37,921 nt of DNA, taken from the IMG/VR virus record IMGVR_UViG_2734482770_000007; one strand, written 5' to 3'. The notes beneath the pieces were generated by a model. The model made no database searches and was not told the DNA's origin. It worked only from the letters and a program-made list of their open reading frames with translations. Made by a program: the position numbers and the translations under genes. This document shows positions 1-37,634 of this stretch, piece by piece (the stretch's first letter is position 1; each line of letters opens with the position of its first letter). The DNA comes from a virus (lineage: Duplodnaviria; Heunggongvirae; Uroviricota; Caudoviricetes).

Positions 1-1053
1 TTACGGGGTAATGCCAACCGCTGCCGCCACTTTGTCGCCACTTGGCAGCGTTGCCAGAGGATTGAAACGGAGCGCCGTTTCTAGATGATCCGGTGCCAGA
101 TGTGCGTAACGCATAGTCATTTTTATATCGTGGTGTCCGAGAATTTTTTGTAAGGCCAGAATGTTTCCACCCGACATCATGAAGTGCGCCGCAAACGTAT
201 GGCGCAGAACGTGTGTGAGTTGACCGCGAGGGAGCACGATAGACGTTTTTTCCATCACGGATAAAAATTGAAAATAGCAGTCTGTGAAGAAATTGAACCC
301 ATCAAGCGCCATGATCTCTTCGTAAAGCTCTTTACTGATAGGGATGCTTCTGTTTTTCTTCCCCTTCGTTCTGACAAAGGTAATTCGGTATTTGGTCACC
401 TGTGAGCGGGTAAGATTTACGGCTTCACGCCAGCGTGCGCCTGTGCTTAAGCATATCTTAACTACCAGTGCCAGAATTGGGTCCTGACGTTTGCAATCAG
501 CCAGCAATTCAACAATCTGCTCATGGGTAAGCCATGCCATCTCTTTTTCTGCGATGGTGAATTTTCGCATGTTCTCCAGTGGGTTCGGATACGACCATTC
601 GCCCAGACGGGATAGTTCGCTAAAAACACTACTTAGATAGCTTTGCTCCAGGTTAATGGTGACCGGGCTTGCTCCTTTCTTCCATTTCTCGCTGAAGTAG
701 ATCTCGCCTGTCAGGCGTTTATCTCGATAGTGGGCAAACATTTTAGAGGTGAGATCGGTTGCAAGAGGATTGCCCAGAGCGTCAACCATCAACAGCAATT
801 TGTCATAGACATGCTGCCCAGCTGTCAGAGATTTACCATGTAGTTTGAACCATAGCTCAACCACGTCTTTCAGTGTTCGACGATCCACTGATTCACCCAG
901 CCAGGGCTTTGCTTCGGTTTCTTCCATCGTGTGGCGCTCAAAAGCCAGTGCTTCGCCTTTGGTGGCGAATTGTTTACGCACACGACGCCCACTTCGTCCG
1001 GCGGGGTAACATTCGCAAAGCCATTTCCCTGTGGTTAGTTTTCGTACTGCCAT
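1..1053 (-). CDS. int: Tyrosine integrase, P2/186 family
   Basis: 350-aa ORF ending at window edge; C-terminal catalytic region with R..HxxR..Y signature (LRHTFAAHF, HHDIKMTMRYAHL); sits next to a cI-type repressor as in P2/186 prophages. Confidence 0.9.
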   Translation of the reverse strand: MAVRKLTTGKWLCECYPAGRSGRRVRKQFATKGEALAFERHTMEETEAKPWLGESVDRRTLKDVVELWFKLHGKSLTAGQHVYDKLLLMVDALGNPLATDLTSKMFAHYRDKRLTGEIYFSEKWKKGASPVTINLEQSYLSSVFSELSRLGEWSYPNPLENMRKFTIAEKEMAWLTHEQIVELLADCKRQDPILALVVKICLSTGARWREAVNLTRSQVTKYRITFVRTKGKKNRSIPISKELYEEIMALDGFNFFTDCYFQFLSVMEKTSIVLPRGQLTHVLRHTFAAHFMMSGGNILALQKILGHHDIKMTMRYAHLAPDHLETALRFNPLATLPSGDKVAAAVGITP

Positions 1054-1077
1054 AAAAAGCCCTCATATCAGAGGGCT
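1054..1077 (-). terminator. Stem-loop with U-run on minus strand, between cargo gene and int start codon
   Basis: Inverted repeat agccctc / gagggct (1058-1064, 1071-1077) with 6-nt loop; minus-strand reading gives hairpin followed by TTTTT then the int ATG. Confidence 0.35.
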
Positions 1078-1135: not shown

Positions 1136-2812
1136 CTAAGCAACATGTAGTTCATCGTTGGCGGAAGTGGCTGCTTTGCGCTCCTGCTCAATAGCTAGAG
1201 ACTCTCTATATTCTTTCGCCTCTGCAAACATTGTCCAGTGGGCGTTGATGTTCATGTCTTCAATAACTGATTTGATTTCTTTTAAATTTACGTTAAAAAA
1301 CTCTTTTCGTGAGTTAATTTTATTGACCTGCTTTTCGTTGAAAACTTTATGCAGATGGTTTTCTAATGATGGTGCATCATCACTATAAATCATCGCATGA
1401 ACATCGAACGAAAAAGGAACACTAGCATCTCCGAGTTCACGAACACGATCAAGTGGTTCAAGGCGGCGTGTCATTCCAATTTTATATACATCTTCGCCAA
1501 ATGAACCAATATTACTAATGATATAGACGTGGCCTGATCTGGTTTGTTGAGCCATAGAAATAGCTCGTTGATTTTTAGCTTCAGCTTCTTCATATTTTAA
1601 CTGTAGTTCAGCTATTTTTTGCTCTAAAGCTAAGCGTTGTTCTTCATTTGCAAGCATAAGTTCTTTCGTTGCTTTATTTATAGCTTGCTGAATAGCTTTT
1701 TCTTCTTTTTCAGCTTCTTTTATCGCTTTTTCATATTCTCTACGAGCTCTTTCCTCTTCACGAAGCTGTTCTTTAATCCTTCTTTGCTCTTCTTTTTCTT
1801 CGAGCATAATTTCATTAACTGCTACACCCCATTTTAGCTCGTTGAGTCTTGCCTGAAGATAGATGTCACTTATTTTTGCGGACCTAAAGGCAGAGCCATT
1901 GTAATTTACTAGTTGAAATGCATCTTTTATTTCTTGGGAAAGTTTTCCAAAATTGTTGTGTTTGACTTTTGATAAAATACTGTCAACTCTTCCATTGAAG
2001 GCATCCAAAACAAAGTTTATGGCAGTATTACGCCTGTTTTGCTCAACATAATCACACGAAGCAGCTTTATTAGTTTTTATTAATGATTTGGTTAACTCTC
2101 TGGCTTTTTGTAATTCCTTGCCTGCATCTGTAAATTCATAATTTTCTGCCAGCTCATCAAGTACACTACGGTTAGGGATGATCCATTCATCACCATAACC
2201 TTCAATTTTATTTTTCATTGATTTTGCAACTGCTTCATATTTTTCTGCAAACTCTTTAGCTTCATATGCTGAACCAGCAATCTCCTTTGCTCTTTCTTCT
2301 GCATCAGAAATAATTTTTACTGCATTGTCATTAGCATTTGAGATTAGCTCATTTGCTTTATTATTAGCATTATCAAGACGTTCTTTGGCTTTCAGGCGTG
2401 CATCGCGAGCGTCTTTGGTGATTGCTATAGCTTCGCTATTAGCGTTGCTTATTGTCATCTGAGCTTGATAATTTGCTTCGTTTACTGTTTTAGCCGCCTT
2501 AATTTGGGCTTCATCTATTTTTTGCTTGGCTATTGAGTCCGCATTTTTTATCTTATTCTCTGCATCCATTACTGCGCTGTGCAATTCTTCGTATTGCCAC
2601 AATGGTGCTGCTCGCCCTTCAAGCTCTGATAATTCTCGTACGGTCTGTGCTAGTTTTTCTTGATTTTCAATCAGTTGGTTAGAAAGGGCTATGTTGTTAG
2701 CTGTCAGGTTATCTATAGCCGCTTTGTGTTTTTTACTTTGTTTAAATAATATTACAGCTAGAACAGGGGCGAGAAATGCTAATAAGAGTATAACGATGGC
2801 AAATGAATTCAT
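1136..2812 (-). CDS. Cargo (moron) protein: N-terminal transmembrane helix, long coiled coil, C-terminal T5orf172/GIY-YIG-like domain (DUF4041-type architecture)
   Basis: 558-aa ORF; N-terminus FAIVILLLAFLAPVLAVILF is hydrophobic; central region is Ala/Lys/Glu-rich heptad-like; C-terminus has GHVYIISN...YKIGMT resembling GIY-YIG/T5orf172 motifs. Visibly AT-rich versus backbone. Inserted between cI and int where 186/P2 have no gene. Confidence 0.6.
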   Translation of the reverse strand: MNSFAIVILLLAFLAPVLAVILFKQSKKHKAAIDNLTANNIALSNQLIENQEKLAQTVRELSELEGRAAPLWQYEELHSAVMDAENKIKNADSIAKQKIDEAQIKAAKTVNEANYQAQMTISNANSEAIAITKDARDARLKAKERLDNANNKANELISNANDNAVKIISDAEERAKEIAGSAYEAKEFAEKYEAVAKSMKNKIEGYGDEWIIPNRSVLDELAENYEFTDAGKELQKARELTKSLIKTNKAASCDYVEQNRRNTAINFVLDAFNGRVDSILSKVKHNNFGKLSQEIKDAFQLVNYNGSAFRSAKISDIYLQARLNELKWGVAVNEIMLEEKEEQRRIKEQLREEERARREYEKAIKEAEKEEKAIQQAINKATKELMLANEEQRLALEQKIAELQLKYEEAEAKNQRAISMAQQTRSGHVYIISNIGSFGEDVYKIGMTRRLEPLDRVRELGDASVPFSFDVHAMIYSDDAPSLENHLHKVFNEKQVNKINSRKEFFNVNLKEIKSVIEDMNINAHWTMFAEAKEYRESLAIEQERKAATSANDELHVA

Positions 2813-2832: not shown

Positions 2833-3429
2833 TTAATTCGAGACTATTGTACTTCTTATACAAGCAACCACTTCAATATCAGAAAATGCACATTCAAAGC
2901 TATTCTCTGCTGTTGTAATTTTAATCATTCCTTTAGGAAGCCTTGTGATTTTTCGAATGGAATAGGTTCCGTCGATATTGATTAACCAGTTTCCATCAAG
3001 TACTTCAGAAAATTTTTGATCACAAATGTATGTGACGAGTCCATCCTGAACAACAATTGGTGATGAAAGGTTTGCAGGAAGAAATGATGAATCGAAGACA
3101 TATGAACCGTCTTCAATCATTTTGCCTGCGGCAAGGCGAAACTTAACAAGCTCTTCTGTAGCTGCTGTCAGCGAGCTTTGCTTAAGGCCTTGTCCGGTAG
3201 TTAACCATTTGAGGGAGGTTCCTGTTTCAAGAGCACATTGGATTATCCAGTCAGCAGGAAATGTATCCCGCAAATACCTGTTCGCTAGTGTGCTTTTTGA
3301 TACTTCCAAGTGATCAGCTAAAGCCTGTCGTGTCGTAAAGCCATAGGCTTCGACTAATCGCTCAATCGCAGCCTTACCACCTTTATTGGGATTTATTTTG
3401 ATCTCACTTGGGTACTTTGATGTTGACAT
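2833..3429 (-). CDS. cI: CI-type immunity repressor (186 CI-like, two-domain)
   Basis: 198-aa ORF, same strand and directly upstream of int operon, divergent from apl/cII; size matches 186 CI (about 192 aa) not the small P2 C; N-terminal HTH-like region. Confidence 0.8.
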   Translation of the reverse strand: MSTSKYPSEIKINPNKGGKAAIERLVEAYGFTTRQALADHLEVSKSTLANRYLRDTFPADWIIQCALETGTSLKWLTTGQGLKQSSLTAATEELVKFRLAAGKMIEDGSYVFDSSFLPANLSSPIVVQDGLVTYICDQKFSEVLDGNWLINIDGTYSIRKITRLPKGMIKITTAENSFECAFSDIEVVACIRSTIVSN

Positions 3430-3451
3430 ATCTCTTTTGCGATCCTAGTAT
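3423..3451 (+). promoter_or_regulatory. Putative lytic promoter pR (TTGACA-17 nt-TAGTAT)
   Basis: Consensus -35 TTGACA at 3423-3428, 17-nt spacer, -10 TAGTAT at 3446-3451, pointing toward apl/cII; overlaps the cI start codon region. Confidence 0.5.
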
Positions 3452-3524: not shown

Positions 3525-3746
3525 ATGACCCCTAACATTTCAATAACTCTGAATACGCCACACGTCACAATCGAGCGTTATAGCGAACTTACTGGTCTTT
3601 CAATCGACACAATCAACGATATGTTGGCGGATGGTCGCATTCCTCGGCATCGTCTTCGTAAAGACAAGAAAAGAGAAAAGGTAATGATCAACCTTGCTGC
3701 TCTTACCGTTGATGCACTTACTGATTGCAATGTTGTATTCAACTAG
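3525..3746 (+). CDS. apl: Apl/Cox-like excisionase and transcriptional regulator (small HTH protein)
   Basis: 73-aa ORF from ATG 3525 preceded by AGGAGA; sequence [26 protein letters not shown] is a winged-HTH excisionase-like motif; first gene of the rightward early operon, followed by cII as in 186. Confidence 0.6.
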
Positions 3747-3778: not shown

Positions 3779-4288
3779 ATGTTTGATTACCAAGTTTCCA
3801 AACATCCACATTTTGATGAAGCCTGTCGTGCATTCGCACTGCGCCACAATCTGGTGCAACTGGCAGAACGTGCGGGCATGAATGTGCAGATTCTGCGGAA
3901 CAAGCTGAACCCAGCTCAACCTCATTTATTAACCGCACCAGAAATCTGGCTGCTTACCGATCTGACTGAAGATTCAACGTTGGTAGATGGTTTTCTGGCA
4001 CAGATTCATTGTCTGCCATGTGTACCGATTAATGAGGTAGCAAAAGAGAAACTGCCGCATTACGTCATGAGCGCAACTGCAGAGATCGGGCGTGTTGCAG
4101 CAGGTGCGGTATCTGGTGATGTAAAAACTAGTGCCGGTCGTCGTGATGCTATCAGCAGCATTAACTCTGTAACACGACTGATGGCTCTGGCTGCTGTTTC
4201 ATTGCAAGCCCGTTTACAGGCTAATCCTGCGATGGCGAGTGCAGTTGATACCATGACTGGCCTTGGTGCTTCATTCGGTTTGCTGTGA
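3779..4288 (+). CDS. cII: CII lysogeny-establishment activator (phage 186 CII-like)
   Basis: 169-aa product from ATG 3779 ([24 protein letters not shown]...GASFGLL); near-identical in length and strongly resembles 186 CII as I recall it. Confidence 0.8.
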
Positions 4289-5579: not shown

Positions 5580-6433
5580 GCACCATCCTGAAATGGGCGG
5601 GAAATAAAACCGCCATTATGCCAGAACTGAAAAAATACCTTCCTGCTGGCCCGCGACTGGTTGAACCTTTCGCGGGTTCCTGTGCTGTGATGATGGAAAC
5701 GGATTATCCCAGCTATCTGGTTGCGGATATTAATCCTGATTTAATCAACCTCTATAAAAAGGTTGCCGCTGATTGTGAATCGTTTATATCTCGCGCCAGA
5801 GTTTTATTTGAGATCGCAAACAGGGAGGTGGCTTATTACAACATAAGGCAGGAGTTTAACTGCTCAACTGAAATTACTGATTTCATGAAAGCGGTATATT
5901 TCCTGTATCTCAATCGTCACGGTTACCGTGGTTTATGTCGCTATAACAAGAGCGGGCATTTCAACATTCCCTACGGTAATTATAAAAATCCGTATTTCCC
6001 TGAAAAAGAACTTCGCACATTTGCAGAAAAAGCCCAGCGAGCAACGTTTATCTGCGCCAGCTTTGATGAAACGCTGGCGATGTTGAAGGCGGGAGATGTG
6101 GTGTATTGCGATCCGCCATATGACGGTACGTTTTCCGGCTATCACACTGATGGTTTCACTGAAGATGACCAGTATCACCTGGCATCCGTTCTTGAACATC
6201 GGTCATCAGAAGGACATCCGGTCATTGTTTCTAACAGTGACACATCCCTGATCCGTTCGCTGTATCGCAATTTTACTCACCACTATATCAAGGTAAAACG
6301 CAGCATCGGTGTGGCAGCTGGCGAGGGTAAATCAGCAACAGAAATCATTGCTGTTTCCGGGCCGCGCTGCTGGATGGGATTTGATTATTCGCGTGGCGTG
6401 GATAGTTCTGCCGTGTACGGAGTACGTGCATGA
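5576..6433 (+). CDS. dam: DNA adenine methyltransferase (Dam family, orphan)
   Basis: N-terminus ILKWAGNK...LVEPFAGS (AdoMet motif I) and catalytic DPPY (CDPPYDG) read directly; GGAGGT upstream of ATG 5576; no restriction endonuclease gene adjacent. Confidence 0.85.
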
Positions 6434-8844
6434 GTCATGCCGATATGAACAACTGCTGCGGCTTTAACGAGGCTGCCGCAGCATTCTCATGGAACAGCCC
6501 GAAAAAGGCCATTAACCCTTATCTGGACCCGGCGGAAGTTGCGCCGGTTTCTACGCTTTCAAACCTGATCACTCTGTACGCTGCCGATAACGAGCAGGAA
6601 CAGTTGCGCCGCGAGGCACTGAGTGATCAGGTCTGGGAGCGTTATTTCTTTAATGAATCACGTGATCCTGTCCAGCGCGAAATGGAGCAGGATAAGCTCA
6701 TTAGCCGGGCAAAGCTGGCGCATGAGCAGCAGCGTTTTAATTCAGACATGGTCATTCTGGCGGACGTCAACGCCCAGCCTTCCCATATCAGCAAGCCGCT
6801 GATGCAACGTATTGAATACTTCAGCAGCCTGGGCAGGCCAAAGGCTTATTCCCGCTATTTACGTGAGACGATTAAGCCATGTCTGGAACGACTGGAGCAT
6901 GTACGCGACAGTCAGCTATCTGCATCTTTTCGCTTTATGGCAAGCCATGAAGGGCTGGACGGCCTGCTGATCCTGCCTGAAATGAGTCAGGATCAGGTGA
7001 AACGCCTGTCCACCTTGGTAGCTGCGCATATGAGTATGTGCCTTGATGCAGCTTGTGGTGATTTGTATGCCACCGATGACGTTAAGCCAGAAGAAATCCG
7101 CAAGACATGGGAAAAGGTGGCAGCGGAAACCCTGCGTCTGGATGTCATCCCACCTGCGTTTGAGCAACTCCGTCGGAAAAGAAACCGCCGTAAACCCGTG
7201 CCGTATGAACTCATTCCGGGTTCGCTGGCGCGTATGTTGTGCGCCGACTGGTGGTATCGGAAATTATGGAAGATGCGTTGCGAATGGCGGGAAGAGCAGT
7301 TGCGCGCTGTTTGCCTGGTCAGCAAAAAAGCATCTCCTTATGTCAGCTATGAAGCCGTGATGCATAAACGTGAGCAGCGCCGTAAGTCGCTGGAGTTTTT
7401 CCGTTCTCATGAACTGGTGAACGAAGACGGCGACACGCTGGACATGGAGGATGTGGTAAACGCCAGCAGCAGCAACCCTGCGCATCGCCGCAATGAGATG
7501 ATGGCCTGTGTTAAAGGTCTGGAGCTTATCGCGGAAATGCGCGGTGACTGCGCCGTTTTCTACACTATCACCTGTCCGTCGCGTTTCCATTCCACGCTAA
7601 ATAACGGCAGACCAAACCCGACCTGGACAAACGCGACGGTAAGACAAAGCAGCGATTATCTGGTCGGCATGTTTGCTGCATTTCGTAAGGCGATGCACAA
7701 AGCCGGGTTGCGCTGGTATGGCGTGCGGGTGGCTGAGCCGCATCATGATGGCACAGTTCACTGGCACCTGTTGTGTTTCATGCGCAAAAAAGACCGCCGT
7801 GCCATCACTGCATTACTGCGTAAGTTTGCCATCCGTGAAGACCGCGAGGAGCTGGGCAATAACACTGGGCCGCGCTTTAAGTCTGAGTTGATTAACCCGC
7901 GCAAAGGAACGCCGACAAGCTACATCGCGAAATATATCAGTAAGAACATTGACGGTCGTGGTCTGGCTGGCGAGATCAGCAAGGAAACGGGTAAATCTCT
8001 GCGTGATAACGCTGAATACGTGAATGCCTGGGCGTCTCTGCATCGTGTTCAGCAATTCCGCTTCTTTGGTATTCCGGGGCGTCAGGCTTACCGTGAACTT
8101 CGCTTGCTGGCTGGTCAGGCGGCAAGGCAACAGGGTGACAAAAAAGCAGGTGCGCCGGTACTGGATAACCCGCGTCTTGATGCCATTCTGGCTGCTGCTG
8201 ATGCTGGTTGTTTTGCCACCTACATCATGAAGCAGGGCGGCGTACTGGTTCCCCGTAAATATCACCTCATCAGAACCGCTTATGAAATCAACGAAGAGCC
8301 GACCGCCTATGGCGATCACGGCATTCGTATTTATGGCATCTGGTCACCCATTGCAGAGGGCAAGATCTGCACTCATGCAGTGAAGTGGAAAATGGTTCGT
8401 AAAGCCGTTGACGTTCAGGAGGCGGCAGCCGACCAGGGCGCTTGCGCCCCTTGGACTCGTGGCAATAACTGTCCCCTTGCTGAAAATTTGTACCAACAAG
8501 GGAAAGACAAATCAGCTGATGGGGATACCAGAACGGATATCACCCGCATGGATGACAAGGAATTGCACGATTACCTGCACAGTATGAACAAAAAAGAGCG
8601 TCGGGAACTGGCTGCAAGGTTACGCCTGGTGAAACCGAAACGGCGTAGAGACTACAAACAGCGAATTACAGATCATCAGCGACAGCAGCTCGTCTATGAA
8701 CTGAAGTCCAGAGGATTTGATGGCAGCGAGAAAGAGGTCGATTTACTCCTTCGCGGCGGCAGCATTCCGTCAGGAGCAGGCCTGCGTATTTTCTATCGGA
8801 ACCAGCGTTTGCAGGAAGATGATAAGTGGCGGAACCTGTATTAA
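6430..8844 (+). CDS. A: Rolling-circle replication initiator (P2/186 gene A family)
   Basis: 804-aa ORF with metal-binding motif [11 protein letters not shown] (HUH-type) and Tyr-containing YIAKYISKN region; start overlaps dam stop (ATGA). Confidence 0.9.
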
Positions 8845-9717: not shown

Positions 9718-11295
9718 ATGGATATCAACTATGTTGTTTCAAAAATGGGGTTCGTAGATGATCTTATTAATGCAGGTTCATTTGATTCTGCCTATAAAAA
9801 TGTAAAGGATATTCTTAACGGTATCGATGAGATAAATACAATCAAAGAAAATAGAATAATTATATTATCTAATTTGGCCGGAAATCTTATTGATATCGGA
9901 AGTTTTAGTAATGTAAAAAATATAGCGGAGGAAGGCTTAAATATCTTTATAAACAATAAAAATGAATTTCTGACTATAATGAAAGAATCCTTATATTACT
10001 ATAACTTGGCAAATGGAATGAGCGCAGTTCTTGATTTTAATCCTAATGACAATGCAGATATTGATAGTTTCATTAAGCTGAATGATGTAAAAAATAATTA
10101 CTGGAAAGCGTTTAAACTTTCACAAGAAGATGGATGGGTGCCCCCTGATTTAATAGTTAATCTAGCTAATGTATTAAAAAAACAATATCGTATATCTGAA
10201 TCAATGGATTATTATGAACAAGCAATATCTATTGATAACTCAATTCCTCAGGCGTGGGTAAACAGATCTGAGGCATTAGAATTGCTTAATGAATTATCTA
10301 CAACATATACATATAAAATGATTAAAGAAGTTATTCGAGGTTATGAGTGTGCAATAAAGTCAGGGAAATGTTTTCCTTCATGGAAGGTTGCTCTTCAAAG
10401 AAAAATAAAGTACAACGAAAGTATATTGAGTGAATCATGTGTATATGGCATAGAGGATATAAGTACAGATGAAAGGCTCACGCAGGAGGAGTATGATACT
10501 TTATCAAACTACCAGAGGTTTTGTATAGATAATAATCTAATGTTGTCTGATCATTCGCTATATTGCAATTGTTATGCGTCATCTAAAGATAATATAACTA
10601 TTGCTACCACCGAGGAAGGTGTGTTTGGTGATTTTATAGTGCCAATGGAAATGGTGTTAAATAGACTTAAAGCTGAGTATTCCTTAGCACGAAAAATGTT
10701 TTTTGAATATAAGGTTGATAGTGAGTTTTTTGATGAGGATTCGGAGGTATGTTATTCTGAATTGTATAATGGAGAAATATTGTATGAAAATGTTGAGAAG
10801 TTAAGGGTTGCATTTAGAGCTTGCTTTGGTATCTTGGATAAAATAGCAGTTGCTCTGTGTCAATTATTTGATTTAAAACCAGATAGAGGACATATATACT
10901 TTCATAACTTCTGGCGGATTAGTGATGAAAAAAGAAAGCTTAAAATAAACAAAATAAATAATAAAGGATTGCTGGGTTTGTTTAGTATTGCTATGGATTT
11001 GAATGATAAAAATGGTGAGCTTGCTTTTTTTAAAGAATGGAGGAATGATTTAGAACATAAACTGTTAGTTATTCACGAGAAAGACATGTTAGTTGATTTA
11101 TATAATTCTTATGGGTTTTTTGATGAGGTGAGGTTTATTGAGAAAGAAAAGTTTGAGAAACAGCTCTTACAACTCATGAAAATTGTGAGATCAGCCGTTA
11201 TTCTTTTTGTGTTTACCATACGTATAGAGGGGAAAAAAAGTATTCCTAAAGATATGTTGACCATTAAAAATACCATCGAGAGAAAAGTATTGTAG
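9718..11295 (+). CDS. Cargo protein of unknown function; TPR-like N-terminal region, C-terminal HEPN-like Rx4H motif
   Basis: 525-aa ORF, strongly AT-rich by eye; AAGAGGA-like SD (AAAGAGGATTGAATG); helical repeat-like segment YYEQAISIDNSIPQAWVNRSEALELL; C-terminal EWRNDLEHK fits HEPN R-x4-H; followed by hairpin tcatcg-agc-cgatga plus T-run. Confidence 0.7.
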   Translation: MDINYVVSKMGFVDDLINAGSFDSAYKNVKDILNGIDEINTIKENRIIILSNLAGNLIDIGSFSNVKNIAEEGLNIFINNKNEFLTIMKESLYYYNLANGMSAVLDFNPNDNADIDSFIKLNDVKNNYWKAFKLSQEDGWVPPDLIVNLANVLKKQYRISESMDYYEQAISIDNSIPQAWVNRSEALELLNELSTTYTYKMIKEVIRGYECAIKSGKCFPSWKVALQRKIKYNESILSESCVYGIEDISTDERLTQEEYDTLSNYQRFCIDNNLMLSDHSLYCNCYASSKDNITIATTEEGVFGDFIVPMEMVLNRLKAEYSLARKMFFEYKVDSEFFDEDSEVCYSELYNGEILYENVEKLRVAFRACFGILDKIAVALCQLFDLKPDRGHIYFHNFWRISDEKRKLKINKINNKGLLGLFSIAMDLNDKNGELAFFKEWRNDLEHKLLVIHEKDMLVDLYNSYGFFDEVRFIEKEKFEKQLLQLMKIVRSAVILFVFTIRIEGKKSIPKDMLTIKNTIERKVL

Positions 11296-12168: not shown

Positions 12169-13209
12169 TTACTCAGAAATATCTAAGTTGTAAGATTCAA
12201 AGCAAATCACTTTTTCACCTAGCCAGTTGTTCAGCTCTTGCAGCCGCTTTTGCAGTGGCATCAGTTCATTGCGGACAAACACTCGACTAGCCTTCTCCAC
12301 ATCCCCAAACCCCCCGACATTATTAGGCATTATCCCCATCATTTGTGGCGGCACACGATGCGCCGCCATCATGTCGTCCCGGCTCACGTTCTTGATATTC
12401 AGGAACTCATCCTTCGCCGCCACTTCTGACAACGGGATAATCTGAAGCCCGTCCTTTTTACCGTTAGGCGAGTACATAAACAGGTTACGGAAGTTACCAG
12501 GACCTTTGGCGCTTTTCATCGCATTGCGGAGGTTGTTCACATCCTCCTGGTTCTGCGCAGCATCGGTCATGTACATGATGAAGCCTGCATGACTGCCGTT
12601 AATGTAATACTTGCGGCGGAACAGCGTGGCGGACTCGTTGAGCAGAGCTGACGGAATGGCAGAAAGATAACCGGGCAGGCCGTAGATCTCCTGGTTAATG
12701 TCCGGTTCCATTAGATGAAAAATGCTGCCTTTCGTGAACTGATACGGCTGGGTTGTCATACCGTATTGCACAAACCAGTAGGTATCCAGGTCTAACCCGC
12801 GTCGGGTGTATTTTGCCAGTGCAGGCTCAAGGGCGATAACTTCACCGAAGCGGTTCGTGCGTTTCTCCAGGTAGGCGTTACCAAAAACCAGATAGTCCTG
12901 CACAAAACGCGAAAAAGCCTGCTGGCTGAGCAGCGGGTGAGGGATGTAGGTGCTGGTCAGAATGTTGCACTTCACTGCAATCGGTGAGCTGTGATGCACG
13001 GCGGCGCGGAAGGTTCGCGCCAGTCCGTCGAAACTCACAGGCGGCTCATACCAACGATCCATCTGTACGCATTCCACATAGTCCAGCAGTTCGCGGCGGT
13101 CCAGAACAGGAACGGGATCACCGAAGCTGAATGCTTCGGCTGAAGTCTGGCTTTTATGCTGGATCTGTTTCGTCGACGCAGCGCGGTTCTTCTTACTCTT
13201 TCCCATCAA
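12169..13209 (-). CDS. Q: Portal protein (P2 gpQ family)
   Basis: 346 aa (P2 Q about 344 aa); leftward, upstream partner of terminase in a Q-P operon divergent from O-N-M-L. Confidence 0.9.
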   Translation of the reverse strand: MMGKSKKNRAASTKQIQHKSQTSAEAFSFGDPVPVLDRRELLDYVECVQMDRWYEPPVSFDGLARTFRAAVHHSSPIAVKCNILTSTYIPHPLLSQQAFSRFVQDYLVFGNAYLEKRTNRFGEVIALEPALAKYTRRGLDLDTYWFVQYGMTTQPYQFTKGSIFHLMEPDINQEIYGLPGYLSAIPSALLNESATLFRRKYYINGSHAGFIMYMTDAAQNQEDVNNLRNAMKSAKGPGNFRNLFMYSPNGKKDGLQIIPLSEVAAKDEFLNIKNVSRDDMMAAHRVPPQMMGIMPNNVGGFGDVEKASRVFVRNELMPLQKRLQELNNWLGEKVICFESYNLDISE

Positions 13210-14972
13210 AAAATCTCCACAATATTGCTGGTATTGGCGGACTCGCCCTGCAGCGGTTCGTTAAACAGTGCGTGCATTGTTGCCCAGGCCAGATCGGCAT
13301 GGCTGGCTTCTTCGCTGCGGCTGGCTTCATAGGTCGGGCGGTTGCCACTGGCAGTGGTAGCGCGACGGATTGCCATAAATGACTGCGCAATGTCGGTGTG
13401 CCCGGCGTCAAACTCCAGACGGCGGTGGCTGATAATGTCGTAGGCCTTGAGTACCAGGGCGTTTTTAACGTTGGGGTTGTAGACAAACTCCCTGACGGCA
13501 GGAAAAAACGCTTTCACGTTCTCGTAAACCCCGTGACCGACGCCGGTCGAGTCGATGCCGATATAGGTCACGTTGTACTGTTCGGTCAGTTTTTTGATGG
13601 CGTCAGCCTGGGCGCGGAAGTCCATCCCGCGCCACTGGTGACGCTCAAGAATGCGGAACTTACCACCCGGCACGGCTGGCGGAGCCACCACCACGCATCC
13701 GGCACTATCGCCGTTCTGCGTACCTTTTGCCGGGTCATAACCGATCCACACCTCGCGCCAGCCAAACGGGCGCAGCGCCAGTGCATGAAAGTCGGTCCAG
13801 ACTTCCCAGCTGTCCACCATGCACGCCTGCAGCTCGCTGAGCGGAAACACGGACGCGAGATCGTCCACAAACTCGCACATCAGCAGGTTCTGGTATTCGT
13901 CCGGGCTGTACTCCATGCGCAACTGGTCAAGGTCGAACAGGTTACAGCCGCCGCGCACCGCATCTTCCACGGTGACTATCTGGCGGTATTGCCCGTCTGC
14001 GCACAGCAGGCCGGGGGCCAGATTGCTGTGGGACAGGTCGATGTCCACCTTATCGGCTTTGTTGCGCCCACGGTTGAACAGCGCACCGGACCAGAACGGA
14101 TAAGCACTGTGTGTCAGACTGGATGGCGTGGAAAAATAGGTTTGTCGCCATTTTTTGTGAATAGCCATACCGGAAGCCACTTTGCGCAGCTCCTGGAATT
14201 TCGGTATCCAGAAATATTCATCCAGATACAGGTTGCCGTGGTAACTCTGGGCCGTGCGGGCATTGGTGCCGAGGAAGTAAAGCGTGGCCCCGTTAGGAAG
14301 CACCATCGGATCGCCTTTCAGCTCCACCTCCACTTCTTTGGCAAAGTCGATGATGTACTGTTTAAAGACGTGAGCCTGAGCCTTGCTGGCAGAAAGGAAA
14401 ATCTGGTTACGCCCGGTCAGCAGGGCGTCAATCAGGGCTTCACGGGCAAAGTAAAAGGTCGCGCCGATCTGGCGAGACTTCAGCAGGTTGCGGATGCGAT
14501 TGGTTTTTCCGGCTTCCCACCAGTGGCGCTGGTAGTTGAACATGGAGGAATGGAAGATTTCTTCCAGCTTCTCAATCTGTTCATCGGTGAAAACATTCTT
14601 TTCCGGCTGACGGCGCGGGCCTTTGTTGCGGTTGGCGACGTTAGGGTTTAAGTCGGCTTCGTTGCCGCCATTGTTAAACTTGCCGATGCGCGCGTGGCGC
14701 TCCGACTGGCGCGCCAGCAGGTCAATCTCTTTGAAATCTTTCCCTTCTTTGTGCTCCTTCATAATGAGCTGGCAGTAGCGTGCGGCGGTGGTGAGCTGCA
14801 TCTGATCCAGCGGCCCATAGTCACCCCACTTGTCGCGTTTTTTCCAGCTATGAACGGTTGCAACTTTCTCGCCCAGCATTTCAGCAATGCGGGCGACGCG
14901 GTATCCCTGAAAGTACAGCAGCATGGCCTGCCGACGGGGATCGAGATCTGCGGGTGTCAGTGTGGTGTTCAT
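13206..14972 (-). CDS. P: Terminase large (ATPase) subunit (P2 gpP family)
   Basis: 588 aa (P2 P about 590 aa); overlaps portal start by 4 nt; divergent from scaffold gene. Confidence 0.9.
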   Translation of the reverse strand: MNTTLTPADLDPRRQAMLLYFQGYRVARIAEMLGEKVATVHSWKKRDKWGDYGPLDQMQLTTAARYCQLIMKEHKEGKDFKEIDLLARQSERHARIGKFNNGGNEADLNPNVANRNKGPRRQPEKNVFTDEQIEKLEEIFHSSMFNYQRHWWEAGKTNRIRNLLKSRQIGATFYFAREALIDALLTGRNQIFLSASKAQAHVFKQYIIDFAKEVEVELKGDPMVLPNGATLYFLGTNARTAQSYHGNLYLDEYFWIPKFQELRKVASGMAIHKKWRQTYFSTPSSLTHSAYPFWSGALFNRGRNKADKVDIDLSHSNLAPGLLCADGQYRQIVTVEDAVRGGCNLFDLDQLRMEYSPDEYQNLLMCEFVDDLASVFPLSELQACMVDSWEVWTDFHALALRPFGWREVWIGYDPAKGTQNGDSAGCVVVAPPAVPGGKFRILERHQWRGMDFRAQADAIKKLTEQYNVTYIGIDSTGVGHGVYENVKAFFPAVREFVYNPNVKNALVLKAYDIISHRRLEFDAGHTDIAQSFMAIRRATTASGNRPTYEASRSEEASHADLAWATMHALFNEPLQGESANTSNIVEIF

Positions 14973-20483: not shown

Positions 20484-20922
20484 ACTGCAGAAAGTGGACG
20501 ACTGGCTGAGTGCCTTGCTGGCGAATCTGGAGCCAGCCGCAAGAAGCCGCATGATGCGCCAGCTGGCGCAGGAACTGCGCCGGATACAGCAGCAGAACAT
20601 CAGGATGCAACGCAATCCAGATGGCAGTAGTTATGAACCGCGACGGGTAACAGCACGCAGTAAAAAGGGGCGCATCAAACGTCAGATGTTTGCAAAGCTG
20701 CGAACCACAAAATACCTGAAAACTGCCGCCAGCGCCGATTCTGCCAGCGTGCAGTTTGAAGGCAAGGTACAGCGCATTGCCCGTGTTCACCATTACGGCT
20801 TGCGTGATCGCGTCAGCCGTAAGGGGCCACAGATACGTTATGCTAAACGTAGGTTACTTGGAATTTATGATACTGATTTTGATATTATAGAAGAGATAAT
20901 CATAAATTTTTTGATTCGTTAG
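20476..20922 (+). CDS. S: Tail completion protein (P2 gpS family)
   Basis: 148 aa; synteny and size; 3' end overlaps convergent cargo gene. Confidence 0.75.
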   Translation: MAELQKVDDWLSALLANLEPAARSRMMRQLAQELRRIQQQNIRMQRNPDGSSYEPRRVTARSKKGRIKRQMFAKLRTTKYLKTAASADSASVQFEGKVQRIARVHHYGLRDRVSRKGPQIRYAKRRLLGIYDTDFDIIEEIIINFLIR

Positions 20923-22081
20923 ATTCATTAATTTTCTTAAAGTATGAGTCTATTTTTTCAATTAATAAATTGATGCTTTTTATAAATTCTTTTGTTTCTT
21001 TCTCTGTTGGTTCATGTGATGTATGAGCTATTTTGTCACGTAATTCTTTCCTGTTTTTATTTGCATGTTGCCACTCAAGTGGCGCAATTTCGGGTACAGA
21101 GATGTTAAAGAGTTGTTTGAATAGTTTTTTACATCTATCATCGAACTTCCAGTTTTTATTTAATGTTTCTTTTGTCTGGCATTCATTGATACCATTGCGA
21201 TGAAAGGCATTAATAATTTTTCTGAGAATATAGCTTTCAAGGCCTGCTGATGCTTCAATTACGGCTGATCTAAATGCACCTTTATGAACAAGATTGTCTG
21301 CTCTAATCAATAATAGTTCAGGATGTTCATTGAATTCATTTGACATTAAACGTTTTTTGAAATTATCAATGAGACTTTCATCGTGTTTATACCAGCTTTC
21401 TCTCATTAATGGGGTGATTACTCCAACTAAAGGAATTGCACTTATCTTAATACCATCGCAATAATGCTCTTGTAACACTCCGTTGGTAAATCCTGAGCCA
21501 ACTTGATAAAGAGATATCTCGTCTGCAAATTGATCTTTAAAGGCAACTCTATACTGTTTTATAAAGTGGTTTATTATTCCGATACATTCCTCTGATCTTT
21601 TAGGTGGAAATATCTCTCTAGCAGTTTTTATTTTTCTCTCTAACTCTATTTTTTTATCTATATCTTGCTGGCTCATTTTGGATAGGAGCATCTCAGCATC
21701 TTCCACAGATGGGAAGTTATCTTCTTTCCTTATTTGGTTTCTTATAGAGTTGATTAGTTCTTCATGTGATATTTCTAAAAGGTCAAAACATTCCCAATAG
21801 TTGGCGAGAGAAATAATAGTCCGGCATTTCATTATCCCTCTTTCATTTGTGTGATGTGGTAGTAGTTGTTCTCTGGTACCGATTAATAGGGTTTGAGGGA
21901 ATAAGCTTGCATCTTTAAATAGTGCATAGTAATCGTTGTGAACTGTTAAGCGTAAATGGTTATTTTCATATAGAAAATCATAATCACCATCTGGAATATT
22001 GAGGACATAAGGCAACTCGACCAAGTAACGTGCAGCAAAGATCATTTCAGTCATCTCCATATGAGAATTCAATTGTGCCAA
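20900..22081 (-). CDS. Cargo protein of unknown function in the S-V (orf30-equivalent) locus; C-terminal HEPN-like Rx4H motif
   Basis: 393-aa ORF, strongly AT-rich by eye, antisense to flanking late genes; C-terminal KELRDKIAHTSHEP fits R-x4-H; no other recognisable motif. Confidence 0.7.
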   Translation of the reverse strand: MAQLNSHMEMTEMIFAARYLVELPYVLNIPDGDYDFLYENNHLRLTVHNDYYALFKDASLFPQTLLIGTREQLLPHHTNERGIMKCRTIISLANYWECFDLLEISHEELINSIRNQIRKEDNFPSVEDAEMLLSKMSQQDIDKKIELERKIKTAREIFPPKRSEECIGIINHFIKQYRVAFKDQFADEISLYQVGSGFTNGVLQEHYCDGIKISAIPLVGVITPLMRESWYKHDESLIDNFKKRLMSNEFNEHPELLLIRADNLVHKGAFRSAVIEASAGLESYILRKIINAFHRNGINECQTKETLNKNWKFDDRCKKLFKQLFNISVPEIAPLEWQHANKNRKELRDKIAHTSHEPTEKETKEFIKSINLLIEKIDSYFKKINESNESKNL

Positions 22082-26047: not shown

Positions 26048-26281
26048 ATGGAGAATATCTATTTCAGCCCAACGACCGTTGGTTTTTATGTTTCTGAACA
26101 AGAGCGACCTGATGATGCGGTTGAAGTCTCGCCAGAGGTGGAGGCATTTTTGAGGGAGTGTGTTATCTGGGGAGCGGATACATTTAACGTAGAGCGAGAT
26201 GCAGCAACGGTGACATATCCAACAGAACTGCTTGAATATGTCACCACCTACAACGCCCCCGTTAAATATCCTGCGGATTGA
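26048..26281 (+). CDS. Small protein immediately downstream of H, possible fibre chaperone for current orientation
   Basis: 77-aa ORF starting 2 nt after H stop (TAA-NN-ATG), same arrangement as the inverted cassette; no recognisable tfa motif. Confidence 0.4.
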   Translation: MENIYFSPTTVGFYVSEQERPDDAVEVSPEVEAFLRECVIWGADTFNVERDAATVTYPTELLEYVTTYNAPVKYPAD

Positions 26282-26672
26282 CAGGCCATACGGGTTTGGC
26301 TGTATCAACGCGCATCAGCAAGACCCGGTATTTTTTCCATTCAGATAACGCGGCGGTTTCTTCTGCCGTCGCGATTTCCGCATCAAAAGCATCCTGTCTC
26401 CAGACTATTTCCTTATCAGCCATAGAACGCAATACCGTTCTTTTCTGTTCAGCCTGAATAATCTGTTGTTCAGCGGAGAGTGGCGGGATATCAATCCACT
26501 CAGGATTACCATTTTTATCAGCCCCCAGCGTTTTGCCTTGTGGCGCTACGCCTGTGTAAATTGCCATTGTTTCATCATCAACATCAACGCCATTTTCAGG
26601 CCATGAACCGGCGCTGATATATACCTCTTTTAGTGCTTTCGGATAGAAAGAGCCTTTATAAAATTTATTCAT
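26262..26672 (-). CDS. Tail fibre assembly protein (Tfa), paired with the alternative fibre cassette
   Basis: C-terminal [32 protein letters not shown] matches conserved Tfa C-terminus (lambda Tfa [27 protein letters not shown]); start taken at ATG 26672, 2 nt after cassette stop (track start 26702). Confidence 0.7.
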   Translation of the reverse strand: [136 protein letters not shown]

Positions 26673-26674
26673 TC

Positions 26675-27184
26675 TTAATACCCCAGCGCGATAAAACAAC
26701 AATCTTCGGTGCCCTCTCCGGATGGCGACCAGTTCTGAATACTGATATGCGTTCTGCTGGCAATACGCACATTCATCGCGGCATTGTAGCCAGATGTTCC
26801 ACGGTTTCCGGTCGCAAATAAGCCTGCATAGGGAAAAGCAAATGGTAAGGCATATCCAGCATCAGCTCCCTTTTGTGTTGCCACCGTTCCCCACTGCAAC
26901 ATAAGTTTCACCGGGTTTCCTGTCGTCGCAATGCATGGAATGTAGATGTAGCCATTCCCTGACATCATTGACCTGAAGCTATCTAAATCCAGTAACTTCG
27001 AGGCATTATCTGCTCCAACATCTCGTGTTGCGGCGGTCCCTAACTGGAGCGTATTTCGGAAGGCTGATACATCAGAAATATCAGCTCCATTAGCCGATTT
27101 CTGCATAGCTCCGGAGGCTTTATTTATCGTTTCTCCCAAACCAACGTTTATGAAAATGCAGAGATAACGGCTAACTGGCATCAT
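26675..27184 (-). CDS. Alternative tail-fibre C-terminal cassette (promoterless in this orientation)
   Basis: Minus-strand ORF with LQLGTAATRDVG paralogous to H YLQLGEAAKRDVG; contains hix-like site near its 5' end, in the same codon phase as the site in H, so inversion would fuse it in frame to H codons 1-354. Confidence 0.6.
   Translation of the reverse strand: MMPVSRYLCIFINVGLGETINKASGAMQKSANGADISDVSAFRNTLQLGTAATRDVGADNASKLLDLDSFRSMMSGNGYIYIPCIATTGNPVKLMLQWGTVATQKGADAGYALPFAFPYAGLFATGNRGTSGYNAAMNVRIASRTHISIQNWSPSGEGTEDCCFIALGY
27131..27156. promoter_or_regulatory. hix/gix-like 26-bp invertase crossover site (right), core AA
   Basis: TTCTCCCAAACC AA CGTTTATGAAAA; about 20 of 26 match to Hin hixL as recalled (TTCTTGAAAACCAAGGTTTTTGATAA). 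Confidence 0.6.
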
Positions 27185-36987: not shown

Positions 36988-37256
36988 GGAGGCTAACTTC
37001 TTGTTTACTAGTAAGCTGTTGAAAGAAATGGTAATTTACGATAATGTTTTTTACCAGAATTCAGGGCGCAGATTCATTCAGCGCACCTAAACGATAGTAA
37101 AGTAACAATATATTTTACTAGTGTAATCACATTAGGTATCAACGGCTATATGAATTGCGTTGGCCTATATTAGCATGGAATGCGAAGCGGCTTTATCTTA
37201 CTGAACGCCACACTGGCGAAAAATGTGTTCGATAGACGCAGTGTCAGGAGGAACGA

Positions 37257-37634
37257 GTGAAACATAAACAACGTTGGGCGGGGGCAATCTGCTGTTTTGT
37301 CCTCTTCATTGTGGTGTGCCTTTTTCTGGCGACGCACATGAAAGGCGCTTTTCGGGCTGCCGGGCATCCTGAAATCGGCTTGCTATTTTTCATTCTTCCT
37401 GGAGCAGTCGCCAGCTTCTTTTCACAGCGTAGAGAAGTCCTGAAACCTCTGTTTGGCGCAATGCTGGCGGCACCCTGTTCGATGCTCATTATGCGGCTGT
37501 TTTTTTCACCGACGCGCTCATTCTGGCAAGAGCTGGCATGGTTACTAAGCGCGGTGTTCTGGTGTGCGCTGGGGGCACTGTGTTTCTTATTTATCAGTAG
37601 TTTGTTTAAACCACAGCACAGAAAAAATCAGTAA
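37257..37634 (+). CDS. ybjM: Inner membrane protein YbjM
   Basis: 125-aa hydrophobic protein between ybjL and grxA, as in E. coli K-12. Confidence 0.75.
   Translation: MKHKQRWAGAICCFVLFIVVCLFLATHMKGAFRAAGHPEIGLLFFILPGAVASFFSQRREVLKPLFGAMLAAPCSMLIMRLFFSPTRSFWQELAWLLSAVFWCALGALCFLFISSLFKPQHRKNQ

Follow-up and report, generated by a model that had tools for sequence, protein, structure and literature searches.

What is a 558-aa gene doing between the repressor and integrase genes of a 186/P2-like prophage? In 186 and P2 the repressor gene stands directly before int, as an earlier note on this DNA had stated: cI and int share 1 nt in 186, and in P2 a gap of 115 nt without any gene separates C from int. 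In the window (the whole stretch of 37,921 nucleotides of caudoviricete virus DNA that was analysed), an AT-rich gene occupies this interval on the same strand. The earlier note read it as a membrane-anchored coiled-coil protein with a GIY-YIG-like domain, co-transcribed with the repressor and plausibly acting in superinfection exclusion or defence. The arrangement was confirmed from the open reading frame, its GC content of 0.37 (int, 0.49; whole window, 0.50) and Pfam searches of the neighbours. We find that the gene is a homologue of the SNIPE (formerly PD-λ-1) family, which has already been named and mechanistically characterised. It is not a new kind of system; the finding is correct but already known, and the identity is already recoverable by standard annotation with PADLOC and RefSeq. 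Taken as a whole, the locus is very probably best explained by a SNIPE-family entry-defence nuclease, carried as a moron and expressed in lysogens.

The reading frame starts with ATG and runs uninterrupted through 558 codons on the minus strand (Table 1). Its product is 100% identical to E. coli proteins deposited at NCBI, and the RefSeq product name on the identical copies is "SNIPE associated domain-containing protein". Two PADLOC PD-Lambda-1 models matched the protein: PDLC03976 with E=2.4e-120, aligning protein residues 106-550 to profile positions 36-481 of 491, and PDLC03977 with E=7.9e-117. Family membership is established by these matches.

Table 1. Features of the lysogeny region and of the 558-aa protein, in positions of the window.
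Feature	Position	Strand	Basis
Tyrosine integrase int, 350 aa, last gene of the leftward lysogeny operon	1..1053	-	Pfam Int_N 3e-32, Phage_integrase 7e-22
Terminator-like hairpin AGCCCTC-TGATAT-GAGGGCT, then UUUU, then int AUG	1058..1077	-	Terminator scan, RNA fold
SNIPE / PD-λ-1 family gene, intact, 558 aa	1136..2812	-	ORF, PADLOC, BLASTP, NCBI identical proteins
T5orf172/MUG113 (GIY-YIG-type) nuclease domain, aa 427-520, with Y430, Y443, R449, E484	1253..1534	-	Pfam
E484 codon, counterpart of SNIPE E414	1361..1363	-	Alignment of E414 with E484 in APSLENHLHKVF
Charged helical linker from DUF4041 to nuclease, aa 326-425	1538..1837	-	Predicted helices; reference SNIPE alignment
DUF4041 (PF13250), aa 267-322	1847..2014	-	Pfam E=3.1e-12
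Long helical N-terminal region, aa 24-204	2201..2743	-	Low-confidence AlphaFold2 helices
N-terminal transmembrane helix, aa 4-23, FAIVILLLAFLAPVLAVILF	2744..2803	-	Hydropathy; sole hydrophobic segment
cI-to-SNIPE spacer, 20 nt, Shine-Dalgarno-like AAAGGA, TATAGTAAAAGGATTTTAAA	2813..2832	-	Sequence
186-type CI repressor, 198 aa	2833..3429	-	Pfam Phage_CI_repr 8e-32, Phage_CI_C 4e-27
Rightward pR-like early promoter (TTGACA-17-TAGTAT) that overlaps the start of cI	3423..3451	+	Promoter scan
Cox/Apl-like gene	3525..3746	+	GenBank annotation of near-identical phage vB_EcoM-813R9
cII	3779..4288	+	vB_EcoM-813R9 annotation; Pfam Phage_CP76 4e-42

The domain order of the protein was established as follows. 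The 19-residue Kyte-Doolittle mean reaches its maximum of 3.16 at residues 4-22, and no such stretch starting past residue 9 exceeds 1.6, which bears out, as a prediction, the single N-terminal transmembrane (TM) helix proposed before (residues 4-23). The hydrophobic segment is followed by the K/H-rich sequence KQSKKHK, and an N-out/C-in topology is therefore predicted. The suspected GIY-YIG-like motifs and DUF4041/T5orf172 arrangement were confirmed by Pfam profile search. GHVYII lies at residue 427 and YKIGMT at 443, and three families scored above their curated cut-offs: DUF4041 at residues 267-322 (3e-12; 46.6 bits against a cut-off of 27), T5orf172 at residues 427-520 (3.2e-17) and MUG113 at residues 443-520 (3.7e-20). 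The present Pfam name of PF13250 (DUF4041) is SNIPE. The proposed coiled coil of about 350 residues stands in part: long helices are predicted at about residues 24-204 and 316-425, but a globular stretch of some 110 residues, with DUF4041 in it, lies between them. This correction is based on Pfam and on secondary structure from a low-confidence AlphaFold2 model (mean pLDDT 52, pTM 0.22), computed from a 22-sequence alignment of 82-100% identity. Helices span residues 2-64 and 72-203 in the N-terminal region, with low confidence, and 316-387 and 390-425 in the linker, with pLDDT 63-79. The nuclease domain, at a pLDDT of only 37-58, was modelled as strand 428-434, strand 442-450, helix 453-460, strand 468-476 and helix 480-493, the order of the GIY-YIG core β-β-α-β-α in an unreliable model. 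The model is too poor to carry a fold comparison. Searching the PDB with the nuclease-domain sequence returned nothing significant (best E-value 0.57). Conservation of the catalytic residues is established, as they are invariant in 22 of the 22 aligned homologues.

Vassallo et al. 2022 (PMC9519451) discovered PD-λ-1; Saxton et al. 2026 (PMC13190303) gave it the name SNIPE and resolved how it works. The reference protein is located in the membrane, with a topology derived from PhoA/LacZα fusions, cleaves λ DNA while it is injected, associates with the tape measure protein (TMP) and ManYZ, and acts on siphoviruses only (PMC13190303). Its defence is direct, infected cells living and growing at high multiplicity of infection. 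When it is no longer tethered to the membrane, the nuclease cleaves host DNA and is toxic, and the E414A substitution abolishes defence together with the toxicity of the ΔTM form (PMC13190303). A single TM helix occurs in 59% of SNIPE homologues, and direct defence by injection-coupled cleavage with TMP/ManYZ association has been demonstrated for the ECOR26 protein only (PMC13190303). The earlier proposal of a membrane-tethered nuclease in superinfection exclusion or defence agrees with these experiments on the family (PMC9519451, PMC13190303); for the 558-aa allele itself, membrane localisation, nuclease activity, an injection-coupled mechanism and the target range are predicted by homology.

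Reference-type SNIPE was retrieved from complete genomes with the paper's own primer sequences and is 1 residue from the 'PD-lambda-1' annotated in ECOR26 prophage PhiR26_1 (RCP76574.1); E414 was located through primer oDS93 (PMC13190303 supplement), which encodes APSL(A)KKLHDVF. Both proteins are prophage-borne, have a basic cluster right after the N-terminal TM helix (MTQT-TM-KRIKK in the reference), and follow the same order of short periplasmic N-terminus, TM helix, helical region, DUF4041, charged linker helix and GIY-YIG/T5orf172 nuclease. BLASTP aligned them with 50% identity over residues 265-555 (E=4e-77) and detected no similarity to reference SNIPE in the N-terminal region (aa 24-204), for which global alignment gave 14-24% identity by region. 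The nuclease domain (aa 421-525, 70% identical) and the linker (aa 326-425, 45%) are the parts most conserved with the reference, and reference Y360, Y373, R379 and E414 align with Y430, Y443, R449 and E484. Over the DUF4041 region (residues 265-325) identity is 26%, and at TMP-interface positions K327 replaces reference W257 and S292 replaces reference E223. The window protein has 558 aa against 500 in the reference, and its N-terminal stretch of about 200 residues is unrelated and 70 residues longer. The regions implicated in SNIPE partner binding are the most divergent ones in the 558-aa protein. With an unrelated N-terminus and a DUF4041 region of 26% identity, partners and target range may therefore differ from those of reference SNIPE. 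The genomic settings differ as well: the ECOR26 gene belongs to a lambdoid (siphovirus) prophage, where it is on the opposite strand, flanked by ren and the nin region and apparently with its own promoter, whereas the window gene is part of the lysogeny operon, between cI and int, of a 186/P2-like (myovirus, Peduoviridae) prophage.

The genomic position of the gene is established. The window CI is 29% identical to 186 CI and the window Int 53% identical to 186 Int; the int stop codon falls at the window edge. That the gene lies inside the cI-int operon was upheld by the 20 nt with a Shine-Dalgarno sequence that lead from the cI stop codon to its ATG. This spacer is too short for a terminator or promoter. 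Klebsiella, Citrobacter and divergent E. coli alleles keep both its core TAAAAGGATTT and its length of 20 nt. The terminator scan gave no terminator-like site between cI and the 558-aa gene, the only convincing one lying 3' of the gene. The hairpin before int (RNA fold -13.3 kcal/mol) is found in every relative examined, regardless of cargo, and is a backbone element, not cargo. Its 3' arm is also the Shine-Dalgarno sequence of int. Scanning for consensus promoters gave no leftward one upstream of either cI or the 558-aa gene. Weak minus-strand matches at 1344-1317 and 1237-1210 were rejected as an internal promoter, with 3 sites against 7.7 expected by chance in AT-rich DNA. The divergent Cox/Apl-like and cII genes identify the switch as 186-type, and the pR-like promoter marks the switch region where the leftward lysogenic transcript must originate. 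The position of this promoter is analogous to that of 186 pR in the NC_001317 annotation. The same record annotates pL/pE-cI-int as the lysogenic operon of 186, and by synteny with 186 the cI-gene unit would be transcribed from a pL/pE equivalent. The gene follows cI by 20 nt on the same strand, upstream of the pre-int hairpin, and is thus most likely co-transcribed with the repressor; we infer this co-transcription by homology and expression of the gene in lysogens from its position.

Among 5426 complete E. coli genomes, 164 (~3%) carry the 558-aa gene. An int match was present in 1136 complete E. coli genomes, with at least 90% identity at the best place in 1084 of them, and the cI-SNIPE junction was recovered at a coverage of at least 80% in 160 of the 164 gene-bearing genomes. 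In other taxa, all 13 loci encode a CI of 198 aa, and the cI-gene spacing is the same across these 13 loci from three genera. Prophages whose int is 94-97% identical have other cargo, or merely a small gene, in the cI-int slot; where int is similar, relatives from E. coli and Klebsiella have in this place a 329-aa coiled-coil/TM protein, a 349-aa protein or a 63-aa secreted-type peptide. PADLOC returned nothing for the alternative cargo genes of the relatives or for the other AT-rich ORFs of the window. The view of the gene as a moron is supported by 164 gene carriers against 1136 int carriers, by the empty slot in 186 and P2 and by the GC content of 0.37 against 0.50. We conclude that the gene is accessory cargo almost always linked to one cI allele; both its accessory status and this linkage are established.

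Within the 558-aa clade, identity is 64-68% over aa 26-110, 87-88% over aa 111-264 and 85-94% over aa 265-525. The first ~90 residues of the N-terminal region (aa 26-110) are among the most divergent, and aa 111-204 are conserved. Values of dN are 0.19-0.25 for aa 1-110 versus 0.06-0.11 elsewhere. In comparisons with Klebsiella, Citrobacter and divergent E. coli alleles, dN is ~0.10 and synonymous sites are saturated; since dN/dS is not computable for most segments under this saturation, dN values alone are given. Together with relatives in Klebsiella, Citrobacter, Salmonella and Enterobacter, the carriers form a second SNIPE clade, hard-wired behind the repressor of 186/P2-like prophages. Every such lysogen is therefore predicted to make SNIPE, which is of use when the host range of phages has to be predicted, as in phage therapy targeting Klebsiella or E. 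coli.

On the reading that we prefer, the 558-aa protein is most likely made with CI in lysogens and cuts superinfecting siphovirus DNA at the inner membrane. Transcribed with the repressor from the lysogenic promoters, the gene would be constitutive in lysogens. The long helices would keep the DUF4041 module and the GIY-YIG-type nuclease close to the membrane. During genome injection by a superinfecting long-tailed, non-contractile phage (siphovirus), DUF4041 and the N-terminal region would engage the injection apparatus (the TMP and/or an inner-membrane partner) and DNA. The nuclease would cleave the entering genome; the cell would survive, with its resident DNA, including the prophage, spared, so that the gene would act as a moron benefiting both host and prophage.

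A bolder reading, which we consider unlikely, takes the 198-aa CI allele and the 558-aa SNIPE as an ancient cassette, inherited as a unit, that joins immunity to defence at entry; its partner would not be ManYZ, and it would protect against different phages, possibly including the prophage's heteroimmune competitors. [quoted passage not shown] Defence cargo between cI and int of P2-related phages is described for Vibrio K139-like phages (Rousset 2022, PMC9122126), and cargo 'between integrase and primase' for P2-like prophages (NAR 2026, PMC13586616). The slot is the same interval as that of the window gene and holds variable AT-rich cargo. The portions read of PMC9122126 and PMC13586616 make no mention of SNIPE/PD-λ-1 in this slot or of its linkage to a particular cI allele.

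The 558-aa allele could instead be inactive, or have targets too narrow for measurable defence, and be a decaying or neutral passenger. The S. thermophilus PD-Lambda-1 homologues EU01 and CIRM956, recognised by the same family models, are protective against siphoviruses, and two S. thermophilus homologues that are 98.5% identical differ wholly in activity (bioRxiv 10.1101/2024.10.22.618286). Such near-identical proteins range from fully active to inactive, so the activity of the 558-aa allele is not to be assumed; frameshifted copies of the reference-type gene also exist in E. coli. These streptococcal homologues come from a Gram-positive host and a chromosomal context and are likened to the window protein by family model; phage-encoded streptococcal relatives match just its C-terminal ~150 residues. 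Against an inactive passenger, the window ORF is intact, full-length identical or near-identical copies are deposited, the catalytic residues are invariant in 22 homologues, dN is low relative to saturated synonymous sites, and gene order and spacing are maintained across genera. We regard inactivity as improbable.

Still less probable is an abortive-infection toxin, in which sensing of infection would release or activate the nuclease on host DNA and the infected cell would die. Abortive infection is the mode of many prophage-encoded nucleases, and the reference nuclease cleaves host DNA and is toxic off the membrane. Reference SNIPE nevertheless defends directly, with cells surviving and growing at high multiplicity of infection, and it is the nuclease domain and linker that are most conserved with this directly defending protein.

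The constant location at one junction could also be accounted for by a free-standing GIY-YIG homing endonuclease, a selfish gene that cuts empty cI-int junctions. The catalytic-domain type is common to the window protein and homing enzymes such as I-TevI, and the gene is richer in AT than the genes beside it. Homing enzymes are soluble proteins that tolerate sequence variation but are directed to a site. The window protein has a TM anchor, ~300 helical residues and DUF4041 in place of homing-enzyme DNA-binding modules, and Pfam found no homing-type DNA-binding domain in it. The entire cI-plus-cargo block, not the gene alone, varies between prophages; alleles at the fixed position are synonymously saturated, which argues for old vertical linkage and not recent mobility; and in lambdoid, Synechococcus-phage and Marinitoga-virus genomes the relatives are located at unrelated sites. 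Homing is accordingly highly improbable. An SMC-like 'chromosome segregation ATPase', the GenBank product name in phages vB_EcoM-813R9 and KP12 with a weak SMC_prok_A match behind it (E=0.0026, 15.5 bits against a cut-off of 729), has a negligible probability and is already refuted by the absence of a Walker A NTPase motif ([AG]xxxxGK[ST]) anywhere in the protein, the SMC, DivIVA and V-ATPase-E matches being far under cut-offs and in helical regions. Matches to DivIVA/Wag31, V-ATPase subunit E, SMC and TMF_DNA_bd were rejected as coiled-coil composition and not homology.

The preferred reading of a lysogen-expressed entry-defence nuclease has analogies in other systems. In λ, rexA-rexB are co-transcribed with cI from the maintenance promoter and made in every lysogen. 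By analogy, an exclusion/defence function lies directly behind the repressor gene in both cases, with no sequence relationship between rexA-rexB and the window gene. Rex acts by membrane depolarisation and abortive infection, with no nuclease at the entry point. P22 SieA and T4 Imm may resemble the window protein in site and timing, at the inner membrane during injection; Sie proteins block entry without a nuclease. SNIPE is set beside superinfection-exclusion and GIY-YIG proteins in the discussion of PMC13190303.

The closest full-length relatives outside Enterobacteriaceae are found in Synechococcus phage Ssp-JY37/Yong-L1-251 and Marinitoga viruses MCV2/MPV1, which are other phage types with the gene at other genomic positions. 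Their proteins are 52-55% identical over 73-89% of the window protein and 56-69% identical in DUF4041, reaching 69% for the Synechococcus-phage homologue over residues 265-325. They define the sub-clade of the window protein. Their annotations say no more than 'hypothetical protein' or 'chromosome segregation ATPase'. The Synechococcus-phage homologue has an N-terminal hydrophobic segment.

The 558-aa product of the gene between cI and int (the window protein) can be assigned securely, from its sequence, to the SNIPE (PD-λ-1) family. It matched both PADLOC PD-Lambda-1 models (E=2.4e-120 and 7.9e-117). PD-λ-1 was found by functional selection in E. coli (strain ECOR26, protein RCP76574.1; PMC9519451) and was renamed SNIPE in 2026, when its mechanism was established (PMC13190303). 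The reference SNIPE was retrieved by translating the primers of that paper and searching complete genomes with the N-terminal one. The recovered copy, L006, is 500 aa long, shows the N-terminus, ΔTM junction, E414 context and C-terminus expected from the primers, and agrees at all residues but one with the protein annotated as 'PD-lambda-1' in PhiR26_1, a prophage of ECOR26. The window protein aligned with L006 over residues 265-555 (50% identity, E=4e-77), with about 70% identity in the nuclease domain, 45% in the linker and 26% in DUF4041; its first ~200 residues, a part 70 residues longer, had no detectable similarity to L006. The GIY Tyr, YIG Tyr, Arg and essential Glu of SNIPE correspond to Y430, Y443, R449 and E484. 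Identical copies are named 'SNIPE associated domain-containing protein' by the RefSeq pipeline, and PF13250 is named 'SNIPE' in current Pfam. Together, the model matches, alignment, catalytic residues and database names make the assignment secure and the finding already known in kind, the system having been named, mechanistically characterised and auto-annotated. The earlier note, which had proposed a membrane-tethered, nuclease-like protein as a plausible effector of superinfection exclusion or defence, was right in both observation and interpretation.

Pfam placed DUF4041 at residues 267-322 and T5orf172/MUG113 at 427-520, all above curated cut-offs and as the note had proposed; GHVYII begins at residue 427 and YKIGMT at 443. 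The single N-terminal transmembrane helix was also recovered by hydropathy prediction, residues 4-23 being the only strongly hydrophobic segment. It is followed by KQSKKHK, from which the positive-inside rule predicts an N-out/C-in membrane anchor. From an AlphaFold2 model with low confidence (mean pLDDT 52) the secondary structure alone was used: helices 2-64 and 72-203, a stretch of short helices at 216-307, two long ones at 316-387 and 390-425, and a β-β-α-β-α pattern C-terminal to the last. The coiled coil of 'about 350 residues' in the note thus stands as to its long helices but not as to its continuity; the layout suggests two helical arms with a DUF4041-containing module between them. 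No Walker A motif was found in the window protein. GenBank ON470620.1 and OM835953.1 carry the same gene labelled 'chromosome segregation ATPase', which we rejected as a coiled-coil artefact lacking an NTPase motif.

The gene is an uninterrupted frame of 558 codons with an ATG start and a GC content of 0.37, against 0.50 for the whole window and 0.49-0.53 for the backbone genes int, gpA and Q. The 186-type CI, int and the divergent Cox/Apl-like, cII, fil, Dam and gpA genes identify the element as a 186/P2-like (Peduoviridae) prophage, whose SNIPE region is 99.9% identical to that of Escherichia phage vB_EcoM-813R9 and 96% to that of Klebsiella phage KP12. An intact, AT-rich, same-strand gene thus lies where the note saw one, and the comparison it drew holds: cI and int of 186 overlap by one base, and the 115-nt C-int gap of P2 is gene-free. 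Host genes at the right end of the window, with rcdA/ybjJ just past int in near-identical records, place the prophage between rcdA and ybjL. The first base of the window coincides with the int stop codon.

Features of the window and of related loci
Feature	Location	Strand	Remarks
CI repressor, 198 aa	20 nt upstream of window gene	same as window gene	Phage_CI_repr 8e-32, Phage_CI_C 4e-27 (both Pfam domains of 186-type CI)
Window gene, 558 aa	1136-2812	-	
GC-rich hairpin + U-run	1058-1077	-	directly 5' of int ATG at 1053
Tyrosine integrase (int)	82 nt downstream of window gene		Pfam
Cox/Apl-like gene, cII, fil, Dam methylase, gpA	gpA, 6430-8844	rightward, divergent from cI	cII, Phage_CP76 4e-42
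525-aa ORF	9718-11295	+	C-terminal LA2681-like HEPN domain (Pfam E=1.8e-38), GC 0.31
Portal/terminase genes	12169-14972		
393-aa ORF	20900-22081	-	GC 0.33
Two tail-fibre ORFs	26262-27184	-	assembly protein (Caudo_TAP, 1e-30); C-terminal domain (Gp53-like_C, 2e-8)
Host DNA	35302-37634		
ybjL-like	35302-36987	-	Asp-Al_Ex/TrkA_C transporter
ybjM	37257-37634		
329-aa coiled-coil protein	within L003:2640-4578		E. coli 98234; C-terminal hydrophobic segments; PHROG 2628; behind 312-aa CI with two HTH domains (duplicated HTH)
349-aa unknown protein	within L002:1851-3844		Klebsiella phage 4LV2017
63-aa Cys-rich peptide	L004/L005		signal-like N-terminus; YdcA family; PHROG 6000
Panacea (SocA-like antitoxin) protein + 251-aa unknown	L004:4041-5269		E. 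coli GPEC1292
Window-protein homologue	L023:3408-5075		Synechococcus phage Ssp-JY37 (host cyanobacterium)
Window-protein homologue	L024:2088-3836		Marinitoga camini virus 2 (Thermotogae host)

The two genes differ in setting: the reference SNIPE gene belongs to a lambdoid prophage, where it is flanked by ren and the nin region and runs on the opposite strand, and the window gene is part of a leftward lysogeny operon in a myovirus prophage. Its ATG is preceded at a proper distance by AAAGGA, and a terminator scan found no terminator-like site in the 20-nt spacer from cI. In the 186 operon as annotated, pL and pE drive cI and then int; on this model, the gene is expected to be co-transcribed with cI both when lysogeny is established and while it is maintained. 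The sole good terminator-like site, AGCCCTC-TGATAT-GAGGGCT plus UUUU (-13.3 kcal/mol), lies 3' of the gene, and its 3' arm (GAGGG) doubles as the int Shine-Dalgarno sequence. This hairpin is absent upstream of int in 186 and P2 and was kept in all relatives examined, in two sequence variants with the stem preserved; since it occurs irrespective of the cargo, it is a backbone feature. Its possible roles are attenuation of transcription into int, masking of the int ribosome-binding site, or both.

In relatives whose int is 94-97% identical, other same-strand genes that are rich in AT (GC 0.33-0.36) directly follow the relatives' own, different cI alleles; the 329-aa, 349-aa and 63-aa genes had no PADLOC match. 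The location is not new either, since a cI-int defence hotspot was noted in Vibrio K139-like P2 relatives (PMC9122126) and a 2026 survey placed 8% of P2 defence systems in the integrase-primase interval (PMC13586616); in the parts of these two papers available to us we found no mention of SNIPE at this slot or of allele-specific linkage to cI. E. coli GPEC1292 has a second cargo position between int and the attachment-site side (rcdA), which fits the 'integrase-att' hotspot mentioned in PMC13586616.

A close relative of the window int occurs in 1136 of 5426 complete E. coli genomes and the window gene in 164, single-copy and chromosomal in every carrier; the gene is therefore accessory, as its designation as a moron had implied. 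The cI-window gene junction was found at at least 80% coverage in 160 genomes and the remaining 11 matches cover only the 5' part of cI, so that the cI allele and the gene are almost perfectly linked. Thirteen further loci (Klebsiella, Citrobacter and a divergent E. coli allele) keep the layout to the nucleotide (CI 198 aa, 20 nt, 558 aa, 82-83 nt, int), while their integrases (344-350 aa) and integration sites vary. Between alleles, identity is 81-87% for CI, 82-85% for SNIPE and 90-93% for Int. Synonymous sites between SNIPE alleles are saturated at a dN of ~0.1, indicating that the CI-SNIPE pair is old and under purifying selection.

Divergence peaks in residues 1-110 (56-68% identity, dN 0.19-0.25); most of the remaining protein has 85-94% identity and dN 0.06-0.11. 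The pattern is in line with the published proposal that SNIPE adapts through its N-terminal region, which is less conserved among homologues than any other part (PMC13190303). Mutations at the W257 and E223 positions of DUF4041 strengthened tape-measure binding in the reference SNIPE (PMC13190303); the window protein naturally has K327 for W257 and S292 for E223. Outside enterobacteria, it has its nearest full-length relatives in phages of Synechococcus and viruses of Marinitoga (52-55% identity), and its DUF4041 is 56-69% identical to the L023 and L024 homologues versus 26% to the E. coli reference. Conservation across phyla thus appears unexpectedly high for a defence gene, and these relatives mark the 558-aa form as a distinct, widespread sub-clade of the family.

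SNIPE is a constitutive inner-membrane protein whose N-terminus is periplasmic and whose bulk is cytoplasmic, and it has ManYZ and the tape measure protein as partners; it cuts λ DNA during injection, leaves induced prophage and plasmid uncut, and protects against siphoviruses only (PMC13190303). E414A or deletion of DUF4041 abolishes defence, and without the TM helix the protein is a toxic nuclease on the nucleoid (PMC13190303). We consider it likely that the window gene encodes a functional SNIPE, made in lysogens, that would cut superinfecting siphovirus DNA at the membrane. The rivals weighed, namely an inactive passenger, an abortive-infection toxin, a homing endonuclease and an SMC-like ATPase, each had evidence against them. 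Resident DNA is not attacked by the reference SNIPE, so a functional SNIPE in the lysogen would leave the prophage intact; it would probably also spare myoviruses of the prophage's type, since none of the BASEL myoviruses proved sensitive to the reference (PMC13190303). Homology does not reveal activity or range, because two S. thermophilus homologues 98.5% identical gave strong and no protection (bioRxiv 10.1101/2024.10.22.618286) and the partner-binding regions of the window protein differ. The remaining interest lies in a SNIPE sub-clade whose N-terminal arm and DUF4041 surface differ from those of the reference, in the constant position of the 558-aa form behind one cI allele, and in the conserved hairpin between cargo slot and int.

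The 525-aa ORF of the window sits between gpA and the portal/terminase genes, the classic P2 defence hotspot; it gave only a weak TPR match in PADLOC v2 and nothing in PHROGs, and is a candidate uncharacterised HEPN defence gene. The 393-aa ORF, on the strand opposite to the flanking structural and lysis genes, had PHROG 28299 (unknown function, E=3e-277) as its sole match and none in PADLOC, and looks like a further cargo gene inside the tail-gene block. The two tail-fibre ORFs run opposite to the plus-strand tail genes, an arrangement that recalls a tail-fibre cassette of the alternative or invertible kind.
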